Source of the DNA: Paludibacteraceae bacterium
GTDB taxonomy: Bacteria; Bacteroidota; Bacteroidia; Bacteroidales; Paludibacteraceae
NCBI GenBank assembly: GCA_031553685.1
Contig: JAVBLE010000033.1
Span: forward strand, 1-43,412
Reading direction: 5' to 3'
Length of the DNA: 43,412 bases
This document shows positions 25,049-39,875 of the stretch, in pieces. The translations under genes were made by a program, and so were the position numbers. The notes below the pieces were generated by a model. The model was not told the origin of the DNA, searched no databases, and saw nothing but the letters and a program-made list of their open reading frames with translations. Every line of letters starts with the position of its first letter. Positions within the stretch are counted from its first letter, which is position 1.

Positions 25049-25162
25049 GTAGTTTTTTGTAGGTTCAAGGTTAAAATATTTTGTCGATTCAAAAACTTGT
25101 CGTACATTTGTGGTATAAAATAAAAGCGGCTAAATGACTATTTCGGACACGGCGAGGGTTGT

Positions 25163-25627
25163 TTAGCCGTTTTCTATTGCAGTAATACAATATTGTATCT
25201 TTTGTCCGCTACCACGCAGCTCGCCTACGGTCAATTTTATCTTCCCAAATCCGATTTTTTCATACTCCATCACAAATATTTTTGAGAATCGCGATTGGTT
25301 TTTCACATTTGGCTTCGGTTCTTCGGCAATGAACTCTCCTTTATTATCTTTGGGAACAAGTGCATTTTCTATCACTTCGGACAAAAATGTAACTGCTATA
25401 GTTGATTGATAATTCAAAGATGCATGCCCTGCTGTTTCTTCTACCGACAGAAAACGCACATAGATAAGTGAATCTAAAGATTTATTGTAAAGATGTTTTT
25501 CTGGATTTGCCTCAATCCATTTTCCGTAAAAGTCAATGATAAATTGTTTTCGTTGTTTTTTGTCTTCCTTTGTAATTCCTGTAGCAATACCGGTTGCATC
25601 CAATTTCATAGTTTTTGATTTGTTCAT
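25163..25627 (-). CDS. Hypothetical protein (154 aa), possibly the last gene of the island operon
   Basis: ORF only; no motif recognised. A terminator-like hairpin (CGGCTAAA...TTTAGCCG) lies downstream at about 25100-25160. Confidence 0.45.
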   Translation of the reverse strand: MNKSKTMKLDATGIATGITKEDKKQRKQFIIDFYGKWIEANPEKHLYNKSLDSLIYVRFLSVEETAGHASLNYQSTIAVTFLSEVIENALVPKDNKGEFIAEEPKPNVKNQSRFSKIFVMEYEKIGFGKIKLTVGELRGSGQKIQYCITAIENG

Positions 25628-25743
25628 TTTCCACTCACAAAGTTACTGTTTCCATCAAAAAAACAAAATGAAGCAAATCTTAAAGTTTGGTTGGTTTTAA
25701 ATCATTTTTTTATTTACTACTGTGTCTAAATCTTAATTCAATA

Positions 25744-27417
25744 TTATAACAACTCTATTATTTTCTTAATAGCATCAAATAGCTTTACAACTCCATCCTT
25801 TATGTAAATATCATGATTAAGATACTGTCCATTATTTTTCTCATCCAAGATCCTTTTATCTGTATGAACAAAACCATTTCGTTTCCGGATTAATCGATAT
25901 ACTTCTTGTACAAATTTACCATCAGTCTGATTTAATTCTTGAAAATACAAACCTGCAAATTTTTGCCATTCGGGAGGTCTATCATTTGTGATTTTGGTAT
26001 TAGTATTTATATATTTTTCTTCATTCCATTCCCAATCAAGCAATAAATCCTTGTTGCATATTTCCCATGTTTTGTCTTGTGAATTGTATTGGATTAAATG
26101 TTTATTCACAAGTTCAATAACCATACAAAGTGTAATGTAAGAATAGGCAAACTGTGTCTTAGTTTTTGTAACTAAAATCATATCCCAAAATAATTGAAGT
26201 TGAGTTTTTAATTCTGATTTAAAATTAAAGGGATAGGTAAAACAATCAATTCGCTTTATTATTTCTTGGTAAGAAATATATAAAGTTTTAAGAAAGTTTC
26301 TCTCAAAGCAGTTTTTTACATCTTCTTTGAAGCGTAAATAATTTTGTTCTGAGAACTCATTAGAAAATCCAAATTCTGGTGACTCTTTCATGTAATAGCC
26401 ATCTGCACCAGCATCTAATAGAGCTTTCAAATTCCAAACCTTATTGGAGGCGGTGAAGATTATTGCTTGATAACCTTGATTAAGGGATTTGATTTTTTGT
26501 AAAACTTTCATTCCCGAGAAATCCTCTGGTTTCAATGTTTTATCTTCTTCTATTCCATTCAGGCGCAAATCTATCAAGTACAAATCAAAAGGTGTATTTT
26601 CAATCAAATTTTTACTTTCAACAGAAAGGTTATTATAATCGTTTACTTTTTCTTTGATAACAACAAAATCTTCAGTTGCTGAGGTTTTAAATACTTTTCG
26701 TAAAACTATTTCCCAGCCTTTATCAGCCTCATCATCAATTAATAAAACCTTTTTATTTGTGGCATTAATTTTATTTGGGTTTCCTACAGGGATTTTATCA
26801 ATAATTTTCAATAACGGAGGATTATGTTTTGATCTATCATAATTTAGTGCTGATATGTATTTAAAATATAACTTTGTTTTATCTTTTTCAAAGTTATTAT
26901 TTCCAAATAATGCGTTAGCATTGGCAGCCTTGTCCATACTATGTGCACCCCAAACATTTGCTAAAGAATGTCTTCCAGTAACTTCATCAGGTAGAATTTT
27001 TATAATATTGAGAAAGCCCATTTTATATTCATCAATAAGAATACCGTTATTCGCGGATATTTCAATTCCCATTTTATCAAAATCAGAGAAACCAATACCT
27101 TTTGTTGCAAGAATTTGACTCCAAATCTTTGTATCAATCATTATTGATTTTAATGAAGATATGCTTGCAAATAATATTGGCAACAAAGCTTTTTCTTTTA
27201 AATATTCGATAGAAAGCCTTATGTGTAACCCAATTTTTAAAGACAGAATTGAATCATTAGGAATCTCAATGATCAATTTATCTATTTCATTTTTGTTAAA
27301 AATCGAAATTAACCAATTATGAATTTCATAATCATTTGTCAAGTTTGGAATTTCAATAAAATTGAATCCAGATTCCTTTGCAGTATTACTATTACCAAGT
27401 ATAAATATTTTCTCCAT
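25744..27417 (-). CDS. Response-regulator receiver (REC) domain protein with C-terminal HEPN-like (RNxxxH) domain
   Basis: The REC signature KKVLLIDDEAD...DLYLIDLRLNG...AIIFTASNKVWNLKALLDAGADGYYMK falls at about aa 213-330. The C-terminus has ...VYRLIRKRNGFVHTDKRILDE, matching the Rx4-6H motif (here R-N-xxx-H). The N-terminal roughly 210 aa are unassigned. The start overlaps the upstream gene by 26 nt. Confidence 0.6.
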   Translation of the reverse strand: MEKIFILGNSNTAKESGFNFIEIPNLTNDYEIHNWLISIFNKNEIDKLIIEIPNDSILSLKIGLHIRLSIEYLKEKALLPILFASISSLKSIMIDTKIWSQILATKGIGFSDFDKMGIEISANNGILIDEYKMGFLNIIKILPDEVTGRHSLANVWGAHSMDKAANANALFGNNNFEKDKTKLYFKYISALNYDRSKHNPPLLKIIDKIPVGNPNKINATNKKVLLIDDEADKGWEIVLRKVFKTSATEDFVVIKEKVNDYNNLSVESKNLIENTPFDLYLIDLRLNGIEEDKTLKPEDFSGMKVLQKIKSLNQGYQAIIFTASNKVWNLKALLDAGADGYYMKESPEFGFSNEFSEQNYLRFKEDVKNCFERNFLKTLYISYQEIIKRIDCFTYPFNFKSELKTQLQLFWDMILVTKTKTQFAYSYITLCMVIELVNKHLIQYNSQDKTWEICNKDLLLDWEWNEEKYINTNTKITNDRPPEWQKFAGLYFQELNQTDGKFVQEVYRLIRKRNGFVHTDKRILDEKNNGQYLNHDIYIKDGVVKLFDAIKKIIELL

Positions 27418-28102
27418 ACTGTAAATAACTTTCTATTATAGATTGTATTTTCTCTCTAAATTCACTTATTGTTACCGGATTTTTCTCTAAATCATCTAAA
27501 AAAACTTCGTAACTAATATTTGAAAACGATAATTTGATAAATTCCTGAAATTGCTTTGGCAAATTCTTCAAATCCAATTTATCGGTGTTCTTCTGTGAGA
27601 TAATAGCTTCCAACACAATATTTCCAATATTGCGCACTTCTTTTGCTTGAAAATTCTTTCCCCAAGCTAAAATTTGTAACTCAATTTCTCCTGTATTTTT
27701 ATAGTATTCTACAAAAACTTTCAGATGTTCATAGAAAAGGTTCTTTTTTATTCCTCGGATAAAATGTGGATTTTCTACTTCTGGTTCTCCCATATTGTTA
27801 CTAAACAATACCAAAGGAATTTTATCTCCAAAATCTGCAATTTCTTCCTTAATCTTTCTAACATTGCTTGTAGAACCAGATAAAAATCCTTTTTCCACAT
27901 CCCAATCTTCGGTCGTTATGTGCAAAAGAATACATTTCGCATTTTGAAGAAATTTCAAATGTAAAATATCATTTGCCTTTTCACGCTTTTCAATTCGTTC
28001 CACAGAAGTAAGATATCCATTAAAAGTACCATCTTCTATAAAGTTAATATTGTATTGATTCTGACGCTGGCTATTTTGATTATCGTCAATTAAGTAAATC
28101 AT
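27392..28102 (-). CDS. Pseudo-receiver (REC-like) domain protein plus helical C-terminal domain (hypothetical)
   Basis: MIYLIDDNQ..., ...CILLHITTEDWD..., IPLVLFSNN..., IRGIKK resembles the REC beta1/beta3/beta4/beta5 pattern with a degenerate acceptor site. Its ATG overlaps the stop of the upstream gene (TAATG). Confidence 0.45.
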   Translation of the reverse strand: MIYLIDDNQNSQRQNQYNINFIEDGTFNGYLTSVERIEKREKANDILHLKFLQNAKCILLHITTEDWDVEKGFLSGSTSNVRKIKEEIADFGDKIPLVLFSNNMGEPEVENPHFIRGIKKNLFYEHLKVFVEYYKNTGEIELQILAWGKNFQAKEVRNIGNIVLEAIISQKNTDKLDLKNLPKQFQEFIKLSFSNISYEVFLDDLEKNPVTISEFREKIQSIIESYLQYGENIYTW

Positions 28103-29790
28103 TATTGATAATAAAATGTAAGTATATGTGTAAAGCCAATTACTTCCGAAGCCTTTATTTCTTCTTGTTCTATAGTTCCTTTTTCGCGAAGAATATTAAT
28201 TTTTATAGGCTTGTCATCAATTTTAGTAATAACTGACCAATGGCAATATCCTTGAAGGTGTTCTGCTATTTTACCCATATTGCCCTTGTCTAATGATAGC
28301 CATTCTTTTATTAAAATATCCGCATCTTTGGTTGGATAAGAATTGTGGTGTGTAATAATAACTTGACTTACAAAAAAGTCGTCATCTGTAGTGCGTTTGT
28401 ATTCAACAGATATTTGCCTTTTGTCAGGTGTATTACTACGCTTTTGTATTTCTTCAAAAATTGTTTCCAAAGCCGCTTTAAATTCACCTACATGTGTGTA
28501 GAAATCGGCTTTTGACAATTTCATTGTTTTTATATCAAAAGTGTTTTCAGAAAACACTTTATTGATAAGTGTTTCTAAATTAGGTGATTCAATACGGGTA
28601 GTTCGTCTAAAATCTTTTATGACTTCTGCAAATTGAGTATGTCTTATTGGATGCAATTTATTGCTTTTCGTTTCTTTCCATTCCGCAGATGACCATGCAT
28701 TTGTAATTTCTTTGGCATTGTATTGATTGTTAAAAATAGTCAATTTTGATTTTTGCTCAAATGCAAATTGAGTCAATAAGTCTTTTAAAGTTTTGGGTAT
28801 TTCTAGTTGATCAAAACTTTCGGTACAAACTTTTCTTGCTTGTGCTAAAAATGAATCCATATCAAAATCACCGTTTTCGTCAAAATCGTGTGTTAGGTAT
28901 TTCAATCCATCACGCTGATTGAATAGAGACATAAATTGAGCTACATCTTTAGGATTGCCTTTTTCTCCACGCATAATGGCTTTCTTGAATTGTAGCTCTT
29001 CAATTTCTTTCTCAAGATTGGCTATATCCTGCTTAAATTCGTCTATCTGTGTTTCTAATTTCAATATTTGTTCATCTATCTGTTCATATTTACTTTCATC
29101 TTGTAGCATTTCTTCTTTGATTGGAAGAATTCTGCTAAACCTGCTCCATTCACGAGCATTCTTATAGGCTCCTAAACTTGATTCTGGAACATACAAAGGA
29201 AAGTTATAAAAATGATATGATTTGTCATTTTTACGAAATGTTTCAGAAGATATAATTTGTGGAGTACTTCTTCTATTAATAATATATGCAAGATTCGCAT
29301 TGTTATAAAACAAGTTTTTACCAAGTGATTCTACGCTTTCAGGTATTGTAATAGTTGTCAGAGAAACACAACCCCAAAAAGCACCTTCGCCAATTTTTAT
29401 AATACTATTAGGCATTTCAACAGTTTTTAATCCAGAACACTTATTGAAGGCATATTCTCCAATAGTTACTACACTATTGGGAATTTCAATGGATTCCAAT
29501 CCCGAACAATTCATAAAAGCACCATACTCAATATTATTAACAGTATTAGAGATAGATACAGATGTTACCCCCATACAATCTAAAAATGCTAATTGCCCAA
29601 TATTTAAAACTCCTTGATTTACTATTATTTTTGTAATATTCTTGCCATACCAAGGCACCTTACTACTATTGAAAAAATCTCTCATTTTCCCTTCTCCACT
29701 AATAGTAAGTGTAGTGCCATTGAGTGAAGCAATTACATCACTTGCATTTTCAGTTCCACAATCCCAAGTTTGTATATTTGTATTTTTCAT
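28102..29790 (-). CDS. BspA-type leucine-rich-repeat (LRR_5) protein with central coiled coil and an unassigned roughly 300-aa C-terminal domain
   Basis: ATG at 29790 (MKNTNIQTW). Repeats IEIPNSVVTIGEYAFNKCSGLKTVEMPNSIIKIGEGAFWGCVSL. Coiled coil YEQIDEQILKLETQIDEFKQDIANLEKEIEELQ. The TTG-started extension to 29835 is unlikely. Confidence 0.65.
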   Translation of the reverse strand: MKNTNIQTWDCGTENASDVIASLNGTTLTISGEGKMRDFFNSSKVPWYGKNITKIIVNQGVLNIGQLAFLDCMGVTSVSISNTVNNIEYGAFMNCSGLESIEIPNSVVTIGEYAFNKCSGLKTVEMPNSIIKIGEGAFWGCVSLTTITIPESVESLGKNLFYNNANLAYIINRRSTPQIISSETFRKNDKSYHFYNFPLYVPESSLGAYKNAREWSRFSRILPIKEEMLQDESKYEQIDEQILKLETQIDEFKQDIANLEKEIEELQFKKAIMRGEKGNPKDVAQFMSLFNQRDGLKYLTHDFDENGDFDMDSFLAQARKVCTESFDQLEIPKTLKDLLTQFAFEQKSKLTIFNNQYNAKEITNAWSSAEWKETKSNKLHPIRHTQFAEVIKDFRRTTRIESPNLETLINKVFSENTFDIKTMKLSKADFYTHVGEFKAALETIFEEIQKRSNTPDKRQISVEYKRTTDDDFFVSQVIITHHNSYPTKDADILIKEWLSLDKGNMGKIAEHLQGYCHWSVITKIDDKPIKINILREKGTIEQEEIKASEVIGFTHILTFYYQ

Positions 29791-29816
29791 AAATAAATTG
29801 GTTTTAAAAGTTTTTA

Positions 29817-29867
29817 TTTTTGTTTCACACTGCAAAACTACAAGTTATCTGTGCATTCTTTCTGCAC
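29817..29867. promoter_or_regulatory. 51-bp direct repeat copy 1 (TTTTTGTTTCACACTGCAAAACTACAAGTTATCTGTGCATTCTTTCTGCAC) in the promoter region of the LRR/REC/HEPN operon
   Basis: 47 of 51 nt identical to 30161-30211. It lies 27-77 nt upstream of the operon ATG. Confidence 0.6.
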
Positions 29868-29892
29868 TGTTATGATTTTATGTAGCGAATCT

Positions 29893-30039
29893 TTAATTTT
29901 CATCGTTATCTTCGTCATAATCATCGTCATCATAATCCCGCTCATTCAAGGAATCCAAATATTTGTCTTCCAAATAATCCATGTAGTCTTGTGGATCAGA
30001 AAATCCATCATCCATCATTAAGTCTGAAAATCCGCTCAT
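29893..30039 (-). CDS. 48-aa highly acidic peptide (MSGFSDLMMDDGFSDPQDYMDYLEDKYLDSLNERDYDDDDYDEDNDEN)
   Basis: Translated by hand from the minus strand. It is below the 60-aa cutoff of the ORF track. It sits between the two 51-bp direct repeats, with a nested hairpin (30060-30135) upstream. Confidence 0.35.
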   Translation of the reverse strand: MSGFSDLMMDDGFSDPQDYMDYLEDKYLDSLNERDYDDDDYDEDNDEN

Positions 30040-30160
30040 AGTGTTTGTTTTTAGAGGTTAAATTAAGCCAACCGGAAGGATTAAAATCAAATCCGCTATG
30101 GGAAAGATTTGATTTTACGCGATTGGCTTAATTAAATGTTTTTATAATTCTTGTTACTTG

Positions 30161-30211
30161 TTTTTGTTTGACACTGCAAAACTACAAACTATCTGTGCAC
30201 TCTTTCTGCAC
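30161..30211. promoter_or_regulatory. 51-bp direct repeat copy 2, 53-103 nt upstream of the WYL regulator gene
   Basis: TTTTTGTTTGACACTGCAAAACTACAAACTATCTGTGCACTCTTTCTGCAC. Confidence 0.6.
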
Positions 30212-30263
30212 AAATGTAAGAAATATTTTGTTCCTTTGTATTGGACTGAAAAATAAATAAATT

Positions 30264-31283
30264 ATGGCAACCAATAAAAATGCACAAGCTCGTTACAGGA
30301 TACTTGATAATTGTTTTCGTAATAATGGGCGAAGATATTTTATCGAAGACTTAATTTCGGAATGTAATAAAAAATTGGCGGAAATTGACCCCGATTCTAA
30401 AGGTATCAGTCGCCGACAGATTTTTGATGACATTGCGTTTATGGAAAGTTCCGAAGGTTGGGAAATTGATTTATTAAGAGAAAAAGATGGGAAAAGGGTG
30501 TATTATTGTTATGCTGATACTTCTTTTTCTATCAACAATATGCCATTGACAGAATCGGATATTAACCGATTACAAACCGCACTGCAAACCTTTTCACAAT
30601 TCAAAGGGATGCCTCAATTTGAATGGATGTATGAGCTTTTGCCCAAACTGAAACGGGGAAGTTCTGATGTGTATTCTCCCGAGATTATGGAATTTGAGAC
30701 AAATCAGGATCTAAAAGGTATTGAACATATCGGTACGCTTTATGATGCCATCCTTTATAAAAAAACATTGAGAGTTGATTATCTGCAATCATTTAAAGAT
30801 AAATTGCAACTAATCATTCATCCATACTATTTGAAACAATACAATACCCGGTGGTTTTTGTTCGGTTGTAATTCTGAAAATGGGAAATATGATTGGAATC
30901 TTCCATTGGACAGAATCATTGATATAAAAGAAATTCATAAACCATATATTCCTAATACGGTAATTGATTGGAATGAATATTTTGATGATATAATAGGAGT
31001 AACAAAACCGGAAAGTTCCGGAATAGAAGAAATCACACTCCATTTTTATGGAAAAACAGGACACTATATTGAGTCAAAGCCAATTCATCCTTACCAAAGG
31101 CACAAATGGTTAAGCTCAGAAATACTTGAGGTTAACTTGGAGTTAATTATTAATTACGAACTAGAACGGCTTATTCTATCGTATGCCGATAGTGTAAAAG
31201 TGATTCAACCTCAGTCTTTAGTTGAACAGATAAAAGAACGCTTATCTAAAGGTGTTTATCAATATGATTCACCTATCTATTAA
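30264..31283 (+). CDS. wHTH-WYL-WCX transcriptional regulator (BrxR/CapW/PafBC-like)
   Basis: WYL domain signature IIHPYYLKQYNTRWFLFGCNSENGKYDWNLPLDRIIDI, preceded by an N-terminal HTH region (YRILDNCFRNNGRRYFIEDLI). It is divergent from the LRR/REC/HEPN operon. Confidence 0.78.
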   Translation: MATNKNAQARYRILDNCFRNNGRRYFIEDLISECNKKLAEIDPDSKGISRRQIFDDIAFMESSEGWEIDLLREKDGKRVYYCYADTSFSINNMPLTESDINRLQTALQTFSQFKGMPQFEWMYELLPKLKRGSSDVYSPEIMEFETNQDLKGIEHIGTLYDAILYKKTLRVDYLQSFKDKLQLIIHPYYLKQYNTRWFLFGCNSENGKYDWNLPLDRIIDIKEIHKPYIPNTVIDWNEYFDDIIGVTKPESSGIEEITLHFYGKTGHYIESKPIHPYQRHKWLSSEILEVNLELIINYELERLILSYADSVKVIQPQSLVEQIKERLSKGVYQYDSPIY

Positions 31284-31302
31284 ATTAGCATTCCATAGTT
31301 GC

Positions 31303-31329
31303 AGTTATTCGGATTTTCCGAACAACTGA
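31303..31329 (+). terminator. Hairpin CAGTTATTCGGATTTTCCGAACAACTG 20 nt after the WYL gene stop
   Basis: Same TTCGGAwwTTCCGAA palindrome type as the tandem array at 6934-7222. Confidence 0.45.
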
Positions 31330-31501
31330 CAGTTCATTCAATTTTCTTCAAAAAATTATTTTGACAAATACTTACCATGCTCTTATTGTTTTGTGCTTTT
31401 TTAGGTATACATGTCAAAAAAGGTTGCTAAAACTAATCTTTAACGCCATTGCAAAAGCAGTTTCAGTTTTATAAATTGAAACCGTTTTCAATTTTATTAA
31501 T

Positions 31502-32148
31502 ATGAATAAAAAAAATGCTGGGTTTGTGGTAGTTCCTCTGTCATCAAATGGGGAACTCGTTGTGGAAAACAACGGTTTAAATGTAAAGAATGCGATGCTC
31601 TGACAACATGGACAAACAAAGGAGTTTCATCATCTAATCGTTTTATATGGTTTCGCCGTTGGATTGTAGGGAAACAAACTTTTCCCGAATTAGTTTCTCA
31701 AAGCGGTTATAGAGTACAGATGTGTCAATTCCATCAAATAAAGATTATTCAGCGTTATTTAACAAAGAAGCCTGATTTACAGGCAGGCAAAGAGTTGTTA
31801 GAACTTGTCAAGTTATTGACTCAAACGGATAAAGAAAGTTTTCTTCTCAGCTTTGCTTGCTGGCATGAGAAATGGGATGAATTTTTGCGAGAACGCTCAA
31901 AGGACAGGCTAACTGGAAAGACTCATTATATTCATAAAAGATTGCGAAGTGCCTATTTGAGTTTAAAACATAATATGCCTTATTTGTGGACTTGGTCTGA
32001 TTATATTCAGATAGGAATACCCAATACCAATAATGTTTTGGAAGGGAAGTTTGCCGATTTAAAAACCAAATTGAGGAATCATAACGGACTATCCAAAAGA
32101 ACTCGTGAGGTCTTTATTGATCACTACTTTAAACAAACATTCCGTTAA
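31502..32148 (+). mobile_element. IS1595/IS1016-like transposase gene with a frameshift in an A8 run (probable pseudogene or slippage site)
   Basis: ATG at 31502 (MNKK) is in frame 2. Immediately after the A8 run (31508-31515), frame 1 encodes the zinc ribbon CWVCGSSSVIKWGTRCGKQRFKCKECD, continuing into the 31720..32148 ORF (...NVLEGKFADLKTKLRNHNGLSKRTREVF...). One extra A would fuse the frames. Confidence 0.6.
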
Positions 32149-32186
32149 ACTCTCGGTGGAATATTCCACCGAGAGTTTAACGGAAT
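32139..32186. repeat. 48-bp perfect palindrome (ATTCCGTTAAACTCTCGGTGGAAT | ATTCCACCGAGAGTTTAACGGAAT) spanning the transposase stop codon, followed by two 22-bp direct repeats (32188-32209, 32229-32250)
   Basis: Read directly. Confidence 0.8.
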
Positions 32187-32294
32187 CTCATCCTCACTTT
32201 TGAACATTAGTGTAAATCAGGTGCGTTTTCATCCTCACTTTTGAACATTAAACCGCCTTTTTACATTACTTTTGAAGAATATTGAAAACTGGAA

Positions 32295-32434
32295 TTTTAC
32301 ACAGAGGAAAATGTATTTTGTTTAAAAATATTCAATTGATAATAAGGCTGTTAGTTCGAACATTCGCTTAGAGAAAAATGCAGAGTTTCCCAGAAGCTGA
32401 AAAATCGAAGATTTTTCTATTCTCTGTGTAAAAT
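32295..32434. mobile_element. MITE-like element with perfect 12-bp terminal inverted repeats TTTTACACAGAG, related to 6551-6819
   Basis: Shares the core hairpin GAAAAATCGAAGATTTTTC and the AGTTCGA motif with the 6.5-kb copy. Confidence 0.5.
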
Positions 32435-32455
32435 AAATATAAACAAACTTTACCA

Positions 32456-33235
32456 ATGAAAATAAAAACACACATATTGCTTGCTTTTCTATTGGCTATT
32501 TCACAAACTATTTTTCCGGTCGAAATCGAAAAGGCGGAATTAGACCAAATCGGCGAAAAAATTTTTAAAAACGAGTGTGCCGGCAATAAAGAATACTTGG
32601 TTTTTTGGAATAAAAATGAAAACTTTCCATCGCTCGGTATCGGGCATTTCATCTGGTATCGGGAGGGACAAACCGAAATTTTTGACGAAAGTTTTCCGAA
32701 ACTGATTGAGTTTTATAAGTCGAAAAATGTCAAACTGCCTTGTTTCTTGAAAAAAAACAAAACAGCTCCGTGGGCTTCGCGCGAAGATTTTATGCACGAC
32801 AAGGAAGCAGGAAAACTCAATGAGTTGCGCGATTTCTTATACAATACAAAGGACACGCAAATACTTTTTATTTACCAACGATTGGAAGCATCGTTGGATA
32901 AAATGCTGCAACAATCAAACAATAAAGAAAATGTGCGGGCACAGTTTTACCGAGTGTCGCAATCGCCAAACGGCATGTATGCTTTGATCGATTATGTCAA
33001 CTTCAAGGGCGAAGGCATCAGTGAAAAGGAACGGTATAATGGGGCAGGGTGGGGGCTGCTTCAAATATTGGAATATATGCAGGGCACAGAAACAGGCAAA
33101 GCGGCAACCAACGAATTTGCTGCCGGTGCAAAGTTTGTTCTCGAACGCCGTGTGCGCAATTCCGACCCAAAAAAGAACGAACAACAATTTCTTGCCGGAT
33201 GGCTCAAAAGGGTAGATACCTATAAGCTACCTTGA
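32456..33235 (+). CDS. Secreted hypothetical protein
   Basis: Signal peptide MKIKTHILLAFLLAISQTIFP; no motif recognised. Confidence 0.55.
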   Translation: MKIKTHILLAFLLAISQTIFPVEIEKAELDQIGEKIFKNECAGNKEYLVFWNKNENFPSLGIGHFIWYREGQTEIFDESFPKLIEFYKSKNVKLPCFLKKNKTAPWASREDFMHDKEAGKLNELRDFLYNTKDTQILFIYQRLEASLDKMLQQSNNKENVRAQFYRVSQSPNGMYALIDYVNFKGEGISEKERYNGAGWGLLQILEYMQGTETGKAATNEFAAGAKFVLERRVRNSDPKKNEQQFLAGWLKRVDTYKLP

Positions 33236-38425: not shown

Positions 38426-39748
38426 TTACAACAAATTACTAGCCAACTCTGACAAATGGCTTCGTTCGCCCTTAATCAAATTCACATGCGCAAAAATATC
38501 CTGACCCTTCATGCGGTCAATCATATACACCAATCCGTTCGATTGCGCATCTAAATAAGGCGAGTCAATCTGCTGAATATCCCCTGTAAACACAATTTTA
38601 GTGCCTTCGCCTGCGCGGGTAATAATCGTTTTCACTTCGTGTGGCGTGAGGTTTTGCGCTTCGTCCACAATAAAGTAAGTCTCGCTCAGGCTCCGACCGC
38701 GGATAAACGCCAATGCCTCGATGATTAGCTGGTTGTTCTTTTGCAGTTCCTCAATTACGCGCACCTCTTTGCCCTGGTACGAAAGGCTGTGTTTAATCAC
38801 TGCCAGATTATCGAACAATGGTTGCATATACGGCGAAATCTTTTCTTGCGTGTCGCCGGGCAGGTATCCCAAATCCTTATTCCCCAACGCTACAATCGGG
38901 CGAGCCAGCAAAATCTGCTTATAACTCTCATATTTGCCCAACGCAGCTGCCAGCGCCAACAGCGTCTTACCCGTACCCGCACGCCCTGTAAGCGCCACCA
39001 GTTTAATCTCGTCGTCCAACAACACATTCATGGCAAAACTCTGTTCGGCATTCCGCGCCTCAATTCCAAACACCCGTTCTTTCTCAATGCGCTGCACCCT
39101 GTCGTCAAACGGATTATAGCGGCACATCACACTCGCACGGTTGCTCTTCAAAATAAAACACTGGTTCGGGTCAACATGTTCCTTAAGCCCCACATCGTCG
39201 AGCGGAATCCCCTCAATCGACGCATACAATCGATCTACCACCTCCGGAAGCACATCGTCAAAAGTAACCTGCGACTTCTCGAAAATATCCATATTCGTAA
39301 CCTTGTCCGAAATATAATCCTCAGCCGTAATGCCGAGCGATTTAGATTTGAGCCGCAAGTTAATATCCTTCGTTACCAAAATCGTTTTTCCCTTCAACTT
39401 CTTTTGCAAAGTCATTGCCACCCCCAAAATCCGGTGATCAGGAATTCTCTCTCCAAAAGCCTTAACCAACTCCTCCGGATATTCCTCGTGTGTTACCACA
39501 AACAATTTTCCCAGTCCCACACCCAATTTCGCACCCTTCTCAAACAAATCGTTATCGGCAATCAAATCCATATCACGGGCAAACTCGCGCGCATTAAAAT
39601 TAATCTGTTCGTTCCCCTTTTTAAACTTATCCAGCTCCTCCAGCACCACAATCGGGATATAAATATCATTCTCTTCAAAATTATAAATACATTTGTGGTC
39701 GTGTAAAATCACATTCGTATCCAACACAAAATTCTTTTTTGCACCCAT
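38426..39748 (-). CDS. PhoH-like ATPase with N-terminal PIN domain
   Basis: ATG at 39748 gives MGAKKNFVLDTNVILHD (PIN). Walker A GRAGTGKT and the PhoH C-terminal region. The TTG extension to 39868 is unlikely. Confidence 0.85.
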   Translation of the reverse strand: MGAKKNFVLDTNVILHDHKCIYNFEENDIYIPIVVLEELDKFKKGNEQINFNAREFARDMDLIADNDLFEKGAKLGVGLGKLFVVTHEEYPEELVKAFGERIPDHRILGVAMTLQKKLKGKTILVTKDINLRLKSKSLGITAEDYISDKVTNMDIFEKSQVTFDDVLPEVVDRLYASIEGIPLDDVGLKEHVDPNQCFILKSNRASVMCRYNPFDDRVQRIEKERVFGIEARNAEQSFAMNVLLDDEIKLVALTGRAGTGKTLLALAAALGKYESYKQILLARPIVALGNKDLGYLPGDTQEKISPYMQPLFDNLAVIKHSLSYQGKEVRVIEELQKNNQLIIEALAFIRGRSLSETYFIVDEAQNLTPHEVKTIITRAGEGTKIVFTGDIQQIDSPYLDAQSNGLVYMIDRMKGQDIFAHVNLIKGERSHLSELASNLL

Positions 39749-39875
39749 AACTAAATAATTAAGAATTAAAAAATAGCAATTACTTTTGTAAATGTAATCT
39801 TTTTTCGCAAACAATCCCCAAAATATTATTAACAAACACAAAAACCTTGAACTTTGAATCTTGAACAATAAATAC

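Follow-up and report, generated by a model that had tools for sequence, protein, structure and literature searches.

The 557-residue response regulator encoded on the minus strand of this 43,412-nucleotide stretch of Paludibacteraceae DNA (the window) is probably the effector of a kinase-controlled defence operon, a HEPN RNase that phosphorylation would trigger. Its open reading frame is a real gene, for which 669 homologues were found. The operon runs, on the minus strand, from a small acidic ORF through a kinase gene and gene B to the effector gene, and a WYL-WCX gene diverges from it (Table 1). The kinase, gene B and effector form a core of three genes, joined by overlapping stop and start codons; with two accessory genes the cassette counts five.

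Table 1. Positions in the window of the genes, domains and sequence elements of the cassette
Feature	Position (nt)	Strand	Evidence
Effector gene, response regulator, 557 aa	25744..27417	-	ORF; Pfam iREC and Response_reg; AlphaFold2; homologues
iREC, residues 1-125	27043..27417	-	PF22563; alternating strand-helix pattern in model
Conserved helical linker, residues 126-215	26773..27042	-	near-invariant columns; helices 128-198 in model
REC, residues 216-352	26362..26772	-	residue conservation, hhalign, Foldseek, PF00072
Two linker helices and HEPN-type domain, residues 353-557	25747..26361	-	model helices, motif conservation
RNGFVH, HEPN Rx4H motif (R513, N514, H518)	25864..25881	-	translation and conservation
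Gene B, 236 aa, no assigned family	27392..28102	-	ORF
Predicted sensor kinase gene (LRR, coiled coil, HisKin-conflict)	28102..29835	-	PF13306, PF22561, coiled-coil matches
LRR_5 repeats, BspA-type, residues 63-182	29290..29649	-	PF13306 E=7e-33
HisKin-conflict domain, residues 294-575	28111..28956	-	PF22561
Palindrome GTGCA-N7-TGCAC, copy 1, directly upstream of kinase gene	29851..29867	.	pattern count
Very acidic ORF, 48 aa, upstream of kinase gene	29893..30039	-	translation; called gene in source assembly
Palindrome GTGCA-N7-TGCAC, copy 2, between WYL gene and acidic ORF	30195..30211	.	pattern count
WYL-WCX regulator, 339 aa, divergent	30264..31283	+	Pfam WYL and WCX; PADLOC WYL E=3.8e-24

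Receivers and output domain of the effector

From N to C terminus, the effector consists of an inactive receiver (iREC), a helical linker, a second receiver (REC) and a HEPN-type domain. The AlphaFold2 model of the full-length protein (pLDDT 90.9, pTM 0.87) has as its top Foldseek matches the tandem-receiver regulators PleD and PorX; Foldseek matches also include CheY and Spo0F. The original prediction, which described one receiver fused to an output domain, overlooked the iREC. Pfam family PF22563 covers residues 4-109 with 57.7 bits against a cut-off of 27 (E=1.4e-15), and the sequence of this domain (MEKIFILGNS...KLIIEIPND) has neither the DD pair of an acidic pocket nor an acceptor Asp. 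The linker that follows matches no Pfam family over residues 126-215. It carries the motifs GRHSLANVWGA and LYFKY, and its near-invariant columns are G148, R149, H150, S151, A153, W156, Y184, F185 and K186.

The residues of the second receiver support a phosphorylation-competent domain. They lie in LLIDDEAD (D228, D229, E230), DLYLIDLRLNG (the acceptor D283, nt 26569-26571) and IIFTASN (T322), followed by K344, and are present as first quoted. In an alignment of 64 homologue sequences (42-66% identity to the query), D228, D229, E230, D283 and K344 are each found in 64/64, and 63/64 have T or S at position 322. By hhalign the REC aligns with CheY, Spo0F, PhoB and NarL at 98.7% probability (E=1.5e-16). 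PF00072 gives the query 27.0 bits, under the cut-off of 30.2, and its homologues 30.8-39.1. The domain thus combines the full residue set (DD, acceptor D, T/S and K) with a receiver profile and a (beta-alpha)5 fold.

In the definition of the HEPN superfamily, helix 3 closes with an Rx4-6H motif whose Arg is followed by a polar N, D or H (PMC3710099). In the model, the C-terminal core of the effector is an up-down bundle of four helices (residues 397-415, 420-441, 500-517 and 535-556), with a beta/helix insert (a beta-meander, residues 442-494) between helices 2 and 3, and RNGFVH sits at the C-terminal end of helix 3. The protein had been said to end in this motif; it does lie near the C-terminus, but 39 further residues follow and make up helix 4. 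H518 and the helix-2 residue E435 are present in 64/64 sequences of the alignment, R513 and N514 in 63/64. The Rx4H motif is kept in 119 of 120 relatives, and R[NH]x3-5H occurs near the C-terminus of 69 of the 71 response-regulator proteins of related loci. The query reads E435-L-V-N-K439, the HEPN Ex3[KR] pattern, while most homologues have N, not K/R, at position 439.

The C-terminus of the query has no HEPN match in Pfam, NCBIfam or PADLOC; the query subtype is too divergent for any Pfam HEPN model. The link to HEPN was therefore drawn through homologues. P0111 (32.1 bits, cut-off 28.4), P0077 and P0101 match HEPN_RiboL-PSP, and hhalign relates their subtype to that of the query with 99.4% probability. 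A search of the domain profile against PDB sequences returned nothing meaningful. The domain otherwise diverges to 23-30% identity while the Arg, Asn, His and helix-2 Glu stay near-invariant, a pattern that marks an active site. Fold and Arg/His conservation, the two checks proposed with the original call of a HEPN-type RNxxxH output, both came out in its favour, and sequence and model together support a HEPN-type domain that is predicted to be an RNase.

With known HEPN RNases (HepT/MNT 5yep, 7ae2, 8xdj; Csm6; Cas13; RNase L; the RiboL-PSP family, Anantharaman et al. 2013, PMC3710099) the effector shares a core of four helices, of which the second carries an acidic residue and the third ends in R-N-x3-H, and the variable insert that separates these two. 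It differs from them in its input, which is a receiver here and AMPylation by MNT, cOA (cyclic-oligoadenylate)-CARF or guide RNA there, and in the beta-meander insert of the query subtype.

Operon partners and related loci

Although the effector was first thought to have no cognate histidine kinase nearby, the second gene upstream, part of the same operon of overlapping genes, encodes a protein with a HisKin-conflict domain. PF22561 matches it with 188.8 bits against a cut-off of 27 (E=2.4e-55; model positions 4-303 of 303), and matches 67/67 of its homologues. The domain has an invariant His316, followed by Asp, in LKYLTHDFDE (nt 28888-28890). The protein is 577 aa long from a TTG start, or 562 aa from the ATG at 29790, the form in the source annotation. 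Its LRR_5 repeats are presumably the sensor module, coiled-coil-type matches cover residues 231-293, and a search of its sequence for a hydrophobic segment found none. The protein is predicted to be a histidine kinase, a label that derives entirely from Pfam curation. Neither HisKA nor HATPase_c matches any of the 67 family members, the kinase profile found no match among PDB sequences, and hhalign against EnvZ gave nothing. The N, G1 and G2 boxes of ATP binding are not recognisable by eye, and the conserved blocks KADFYTH, ITHxNS, KGNMGK and GFTHILTFYY do not match them.

Gene B lies between the two. It shares 1 nt with the end of the kinase gene and 26 nt with the start of the effector gene and is translationally coupled to each of them; sometimes it forms a natural fusion with the effector, joined to iREC and REC. 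Its homologues comprise 235 cluster representatives. It contains CILLHITTED, whose H61 is shared by all of the 115 family members; F100 and Y124 do not vary either, and D6, D7 and S101 are conserved in at least 90%. A broad alignment of the family aligns weakly with REC by hhalign (P=0.0016), placing H61 on D57 of CheY, and shows only weak similarity to the effector domains. A narrow alignment gave no significant similarity to the iREC, REC, linker or C-terminus of the effector; the set-up is insensitive for gene B, since the iREC-versus-REC control fails there too. Weak Pfam matches are to the FleQ and OKR_DC_1_N families, and searches of both gene B profiles against PDB sequences yielded nothing meaningful. 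The N-terminal half of gene B is possibly CheY-like, with His61 in the place of the acceptor Asp. The original description of gene B as a receiver reading LLHITTED at the acceptor position was right about the string and agrees with the weak profile alignments, which suggest the fold without establishing it.

The remaining elements lie upstream of the kinase gene. The acidic ORF has a 54-aa counterpart in the same place at a related locus (L001), with a shared DDGFxDxxDYMDYL. The pattern GTGCA-N7-TGCAC occurs twice in the window against 0.06 expected matches; each copy sits in a repeat unit some 55 nt long, and related loci have an identical palindrome in the intergenic region between the WYL gene and the reverse transcriptase or kinase gene. 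We infer from their position and recurrence that the palindromes are candidate operators. A scan for sigma-70 promoters and terminators did not rise above shuffled background in this AT-rich region. A downstream 154-aa ORF (25163-25627) was rejected as a component, having no counterpart in any related locus. The cassette lies within a low-GC island, together with an IS fragment.

PADLOC-DB v2 recognises none of the three core proteins and has no significant match for the kinase or gene B; the effector has only a weak REC-region match, to PDC-M60B, in v2.0.0. The order kinase, gene B, effector is kept in about 60 Bacteroidota loci out of 72 genome loci, and in 6 metagenome loci besides; the family is widespread in Bacteroidota, gut and rumen lineages included. 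A HisKin-conflict protein accompanies the effector in nearly every complete related locus, and the WYL gene adjoins the cassette in most. The neighbours of the cassette in other genomes include BREX genes, a relaxase and genes annotated as TOTE.

What varies is the presumed sensor. Most related loci have a retron-type reverse transcriptase in place of the LRR repeats, and the kinase of a close relative (L008) carries TPR repeats. The reverse transcriptase is fused to or precedes the kinase in most sister loci, which recalls retrons XI, XII and I-C, where it is fused to protease, TIR or Toprim effectors; the best PADLOC matches of the sister-locus enzymes are to these types (E ~1e-85 to 1e-100). 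The window differs from these retrons in that LRR repeats take that place, and a search between 18 and 38 kb found no reverse transcriptase match.

Proposed mechanism and alternative readings

In the mechanism that we favour, the cytoplasmic LRR module of the kinase would sense an infection cue, a task that would fall to the retron-type reverse transcriptase or the TPR repeats in sister systems. The kinase would then autophosphorylate on His316 and pass the phosphoryl group to Asp283 of the REC, and the phosphorylated REC would alter the conformation or oligomeric state of the effector. By analogy, two HEPN domains may come together to form a composite Rx4H active site that cuts RNA, leading to growth arrest or abortive infection. 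Gene B may modulate phosphotransfer or restrain the effector, and the WYL protein may repress the operon through the GTGCA-N7-TGCAC palindromes. A role in defence is suggested by the low-GC island with its IS fragment, the BREX, relaxase and TOTE neighbours, the WYL gene and the retron-type reverse transcriptases, and Detocs provides a precedent for the mechanism.

The effector could instead act independently of phosphorylation, its REC or iREC sensing small molecules or nucleotides and the "kinase" serving as a scaffold or sensor without phosphotransfer, so that ligand binding or a protein-protein contact would free the HEPN RNase. This would fit the proposal of the Aravind group that some conflict-system receivers are kinase-free, nucleotide-responsive switches, the lack of recognisable HATPase_c or HisKA similarity in the PF22561 domain, and the ligand binding of WYL regulators. 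We nonetheless consider it unlikely, because every phosphotransfer residue of the REC (DD, D, T/S and K) is conserved, which is hard to account for without phosphochemistry, and because in the PF22561 protein, which accompanies the effector almost without exception, an invariant His stands before an Asp. With such a protein upstream, the phosphorylation-independent option raised in the original prediction becomes unnecessary.

Two further readings concern the role and the activity of the HEPN domain. The cassette might be a stress module resembling a toxin-antitoxin system, in which gene B or the iREC restrains a HEPN toxin and the kinase tunes it to a physiological signal. We regard this as quite improbable: exchange of sensors, here between a retron-type reverse transcriptase, LRR and TPR, is what immune systems typically show, and immunity is also the typical setting for a WYL regulator, a low-GC island and frequent BREX or TOTE-annotated neighbours. 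The toxin-antitoxin and defence readings are also compatible, since abortive-infection systems are in effect regulated toxins. That the C-terminus is a HEPN look-alike, a non-catalytic helical bundle for binding or oligomerisation, is very hard to believe given four near-invariant active-site residues in so divergent a domain; non-catalytic HEPN domains usually lose the motif (PMC3710099).

Within the favoured phosphorylation-triggered defence operon, a more specific arrangement can be put forward as a speculation, its three parts taken jointly. The divergent kinase, a His-bearing pseudo-receiver and the iREC-REC-HEPN effector might form a common chassis onto which sensors (reverse transcriptase, LRR or TPR) are plugged; gene B might have a CheY fold and use its invariant His61 itself for phosphoryl chemistry, as relay, sink or phosphatase; and the LRR variant, with the conserved small acidic protein, might be a protein-sensing substitute for a reverse transcriptase/msDNA sensor. 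If this were true, gene B would be a two-component intermediate of a kind not described before.

Known systems and significance

The closest layout is that of Detocs (DtcA/DtcB/DtcC), in which a kinase with TPR repeats is followed by a standalone receiver and a receiver-effector, and defence is lost when the His of the kinase or the Asp of the effector is mutated (Rousset et al. 2023, bioRxiv 10.1101/2023.01.24.525353). The effectors listed for it are PNP, REase, TOPRIM, TM and hydrolase, and an earlier bioinformatic analysis is cited as the source of the hypothesis (bioRxiv 10.1101/2023.01.24.525353). In both systems the first of three genes encodes a cytoplasmic sensor kinase (a predicted one here) with an N-terminal repeat scaffold, the second a small protein, and the third an effector joined to a receiver, toxic in Detocs and predicted to be so here. 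Both have swappable sensor and effector modules, TPR repeats being found here on the L008 kinase. PADLOC-DB v2.0.0, a release in which the presence of Detocs models is unconfirmed, does not assign the proteins of the window to Detocs. The kinase here is a divergent PF22561 protein, whereas that of Detocs has canonical HisKA and HATPase_c domains; the effector here is a HEPN protein with an extra iREC; and gene B has, according to weak alignments, an invariant His where DtcB has its phosphate-accepting Asp. With Detocs established experimentally and the Pfam iREC and HisKin-conflict families named for this context, the effector logic is less unusual than the original prediction held.

The proteins of the window score far above the cut-offs of PF22561 (HisKin-conflict) and PF22563 (iREC), and in this they resemble the predicted histidine-kinase conflict systems. 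We take the bioinformatic analysis cited in the Detocs paper to be Burroughs & Aravind 2020 (J Bacteriol 202:e00365-20), whose abstract reportedly counts histidine-kinase-based signalling among newly predicted immune systems. Our literature search found no description or test of the present system; systems of this kind have apparently been catalogued computationally and await an experimental test.

In PleD and PorX, too, a catalytic output follows two receivers, one active and the other inactive or serving as an adaptor, but their outputs are a GGDEF cyclase and a PglZ phosphodiesterase and their functions physiological, not defensive. For the WYL-WCX gene, the closest parallel is with BrxR and CapW, WYL regulators of defence systems. 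As with these, a divergent WYL-WCX gene stands beside a predicted defence operon with palindromes in the shared intergenic region, although the palindromes here are candidate operators by position and recurrence only.

To our knowledge, few Bacteroidota defence systems have been tested so far. If the proposed mechanism is true, the effector would be a HEPN RNase turned on by His-Asp phosphotransfer; the controls otherwise described for these nucleases are guide RNA, AMPylation and the binding of cyclic oligoadenylate to CARF. The invariant His of gene B at a putative acceptor position is a concrete oddity in two-component chemistry. One kinase-B-effector core with three sensors (retron-type reverse transcriptase, LRR and TPR) amounts to a natural experiment on the exchange of immune sensors, which may also tell what retron-type reverse transcriptases signal to.

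A receiver-HEPN effector

The C-terminal domain of the effector is a HEPN domain, for which RNase activity is predicted. All motif strings quoted in the original prediction lie at the expected sites of the translation, and an element absent from it, an inactive receiver (iREC), precedes the REC domain (see table). In an alignment of 64 homologues with 42-66% identity to the query, D228, D229, E230, D283, K344 and P347 are each present in 64/64, with T or S occupying position 322 in 63. The Pfam Response_reg model matched residues 268-345 with 27.0 bits, slightly below its cut-off of 30.2, and a profile of the REC region matched canonical receivers (a profile of CheY, Spo0F, PhoB and NarL) at 98.7% probability and E=1.5e-16. 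An AlphaFold2 model of the full-length protein (pLDDT 90.9, pTM 0.87) matched response regulators in Foldseek, with the tandem-receiver enzymes PleD and PorX on top. The receiver domain is genuine and, judged by its residues, looks phosphorylation-competent.

Of the 120 best homologues, 119 carry the R-N-x3-4-H motif; the remaining one is a truncated protein. R513 and N514 are retained in 63/64 aligned sequences and H518 and E435 in 64/64, with the remainder of the domain down to 23-30% identity. The HEPN domain is diverse in sequence across effectors from independent loci, and R[NH]x3-5H is kept in 69/71 of them, ~30-55 residues before the C-terminus. A domain-only structure model (pLDDT 94.4) has a helical HEPN architecture. 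Anantharaman et al. (2013, PMC3710099) define HEPN domains by an Rx4-6H motif that ends helix 3 and has a polar residue following its Arg, by an acidic helix-2 residue that is often part of Ex3[KR], and by a variable insert separating helices 2 and 3. The features of the model are exactly these. The best match in a fold comparison was a HepN-family toxin (5yep_B, 115/133 residues aligned, score 9.3), followed by the HEPN-domain-containing Roquin (4txa_A, 8.6), the HEPN toxin 7ae2_A (8.3), YutE (1ylm_B, 8.0), AbiA (8oz7_A, 7.9), TTHA0636 (1wwp_B, 7.7), the HEPN toxin 8xdj_A (7.4), HI0074 (1jog_A, 7.4), Csm6 (8jbc_A, 7.3) and the AF0298 HEPN protein (2hsb_A, 7.2). No Pfam HEPN model matched the query's own C-terminus. 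Those of homologues P0111, P0077 and P0101 matched HEPN_RiboL-PSP (P0111 with 32.1 bits, cut-off 28.4), and an alignment of this subtype with that of the query (99.4% probability) brings their RN..H motifs into register. Overall, the original prediction is confirmed in part: the REC-HEPN fusion that it proposed is real and conserved.

Features of the locus and its products (nucleotide positions refer to the window, residues to the protein named)
Feature	Position	Strand	Detail
Low-GC island	about 25100-33200		~30% GC
154-aa ORF	25163-25627	-	just downstream of effector
Effector gene	25744..27417	-	557 aa
iREC (effector)	residues 4-109		PF22563, E=1.4e-15 (Pfam)
LLIDDEAD (effector REC)	D228, D229, E230		translation
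DLYLIDLRLNG (effector REC)	D283		translation
IIFTASN (effector REC)	T322		translation
Conserved Lys (effector REC)	K344		translation
Linker helices (effector)	ahead of helix 1		two; domain-only model
HEPN helix 1	residues 397-415		domain-only model
HEPN helix 2	residues 420-441		carries E435; E-x3-K in query; domain-only model
HEPN insert	residues 442-494		beta meander and one helix; domain-only model
HEPN helix 3	residues 500-517		RNGFVH at C-terminal end; domain-only model
RNGFVH	R513-H518; 25864-25881	-	translation
HEPN helix 4	residues 535-556		domain-only model
Gene B	27392..28102	-	236 aa
Kinase gene	28102..29835	-	577 aa from TTG
Kinase start in source annotation	29790	-	ATG; 562 aa
BspA-type leucine-rich repeats (kinase)			PF13306, E=7e-33
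Coiled coil (kinase)	residues 231-293
PF22561 (kinase)			model positions 4-303 of 303; 188.8 bits, E=2.4e-55
Kinase-WYL intergenic region	29791-30263		two copies of a ~55-nt direct-repeat module
GTGCA-N7-TGCAC	29851-29867		ahead of kinase gene; one per module
GTGCA-N7-TGCAC	30195-30211		ahead of acidic ORF; one per module
Acidic ORF	29893-30039	-	48 aa; upstream of LRR-kinase gene; called as gene in source assembly
WYL gene	30264..31283	+	WYL-WCX regulator
IS256-type transposase fragment	31720-32148		Zn-binding variant; C-terminal 142 aa only
PIN-PhoH fusion	38426-39868	-	PIN_4 and PhoH-like ATPase; 480 aa

The predicted kinase and gene B

The earlier statement that no cognate histidine kinase lies nearby was wrong, as the same operon of overlapping genes encodes a protein with PF22561, described in Pfam as a 'Histidine Kinase domain observed in conflict contexts'. 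The kinase stop codon and the gene B start codon overlap in TAATG, and the end of gene B reaches 26 nt into the effector gene. All three proteins lack hydrophobic segments, which indicates a cytoplasmic sensor. In the kinase family His316 is invariant and followed by Asp, inside LKYLTHDFDE. Neither HisKA nor HATPase_c matched any family member, the kinase profile had no match among PDB sequences, and a comparison with EnvZ found nothing. Thus, the protein is a predicted histidine kinase based on Pfam curation, the invariant His316 and strict linkage to a receiver whose catalytic residues are intact.

The gene B protein, which matches no Pfam, NCBIfam or PADLOC family, belongs to a family with 235 cluster representatives. 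Among 115 diverse members H61 (115/115), F100 and Y124 are invariant, and conservation is 90% or higher at L4, D6, D7, S101, L127, F130 and G148. The pattern LIDD...ILxH...PLVxFS...K follows the order of receiver catalytic residues, with the acidic pair and the S/T and K positions largely retained. Two independent receiver profiles gave weak hhalign alignments (P=0.0016 and 0.0034), which equate D6/D7, H61 and S101 with CheY D12/D13, D57 and T87. Weak Pfam matches in the family include FleQ (5 members, the most recurrent) and OKR_DC_1_N (2), both CheY-like folds, and gene B is naturally fused to iREC and REC in P0419, P0486 and P0496. It is plausible that gene B encodes a receiver-like protein with His at the acceptor-Asp position, as the original prediction had remarked.

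Sensor exchange, regulation and genomic setting

The system recurs in conserved form with an exchangeable sensor. Purpose-built profiles were used to scan 6 metagenomic loci and 72 from species-representative genomes, nearly all Bacteroidota (Bacteroidia, Flavobacteriia, Sphingobacteriia, Cytophagia and Saprospiria). The recurrent order starts with a WYL regulator, in most cases divergent, followed by sensor, PF22561 kinase, gene B and iREC-REC-HEPN effector. The sensor in most loci is a reverse transcriptase (RT), fused or adjacent to the kinase, with top PADLOC matches to retron RT classes XI, XII and I-C (E ~1e-85 to 1e-100, RT region only). LRR_5 repeats take this place in the window and three related loci (L001-L003), and TPR repeats in L008; a profile scan of positions 18-38 kb of the window found no RT. 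Many species encode a retron-type RT and PF22561 kinase as a single polypeptide (L005 3788-6295, L015, L017, L025, L027 and others), a fusion for which a literature search found no description.

The kinase and WYL genes are separated by 428 nt from the TTG start. GTGCA-N7-TGCAC occurs twice in the window (0.06 expected), each time followed by TAGTTTTG, which fits the Bacteroidota -7 promoter box TAnnTTTG. The palindrome is found in 17/79 loci and recurs mainly in the intergenic region between WYL and RT/kinase genes, making it a good candidate WYL operator, here overlapping duplicated putative promoters. The highly acidic ORF (MSGFSDLMMDDGFSDPQDYMDYLEDKYLDSLNERDYDDDDYDEDNDEN) has a 54-aa counterpart in L001 (5324-5488) with the common motif DDGFxDxxDYMDYL, and may be a fifth component peculiar to the LRR variant.

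The cassette lies in a low-GC island with radC on one side of the insertion and an M23 peptidase gene on the other; flanking housekeeping genes, which also include relA/spoT, have ~43-47% GC. With the transposase fragment at its edge, the island looks like a scar of horizontal acquisition. In other genomes the cassette adjoins BREX genes, a relaxase, or a helicase and partner with Pfam 'TOTE'-named domains, and this setting and these neighbours fit a defence role.

In 14/46 loci the effector is directly followed by a PIF1/UvrD-like helicase of ~700 aa with a TBP-TOTE domain (L004 8703-12312, L005 9309-12948 and 12 further loci), suggesting a commoner association than that of casual island neighbours. 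A DUF7017/S1CSD-TOTE protein follows it in both Pfam-annotated loci (L004, L005); the window has neither gene. The 154-aa ORF was rejected as a component, having no counterpart beside related cassettes; its weak matches (LPD3, E=0.003; PADLOC HEC-02B, E=0.003) aside, it is probably unrelated island cargo. The PIN-PhoH fusion, among the downstream housekeeping genes, also appears unrelated to the system.

A proposed two-component defence pathway

The best-supported reading of the operon is a two-component defence pathway. A cue perceived by the LRR sensor would lead to phosphorylation of kinase His316, the phosphoryl group would pass to D283 of the REC domain, and the phosphorylated receiver would activate the HEPN domain for RNA cleavage, probably through dimerisation, as the active site of HEPN proteins is typically a composite one. 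Among experimentally tested systems the closest analogue is Detocs, which combines a TPR kinase and a receiver-effector with a standalone receiver as 'buffer', and which loses its defence when either the His of the kinase or the Asp of the effector is mutated (Rousset et al. 2023, bioRxiv 10.1101/2023.01.24.525353). Membership in Detocs by sequence was rejected, as a PADLOC search had no match. Unlike Detocs, the system has a kinase of a different family (PF22561), an additional iREC domain in the effector, a HEPN output and a middle protein with His in place of Asp.

The Pfam family names (HisKin-conflict, iREC) indicate that the architecture is already catalogued, presumably by Burroughs & Aravind (2020); a literature search found no experimental study of the kinase-gene B-effector system. 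The effector gene is a new member of a computationally known kind of predicted defence system. Its interest lies in a HEPN RNase that may be gated by phosphorylation, in the exchange of reverse transcriptase, LRR or TPR repeats as sensor, and in the invariant His61 of gene B.
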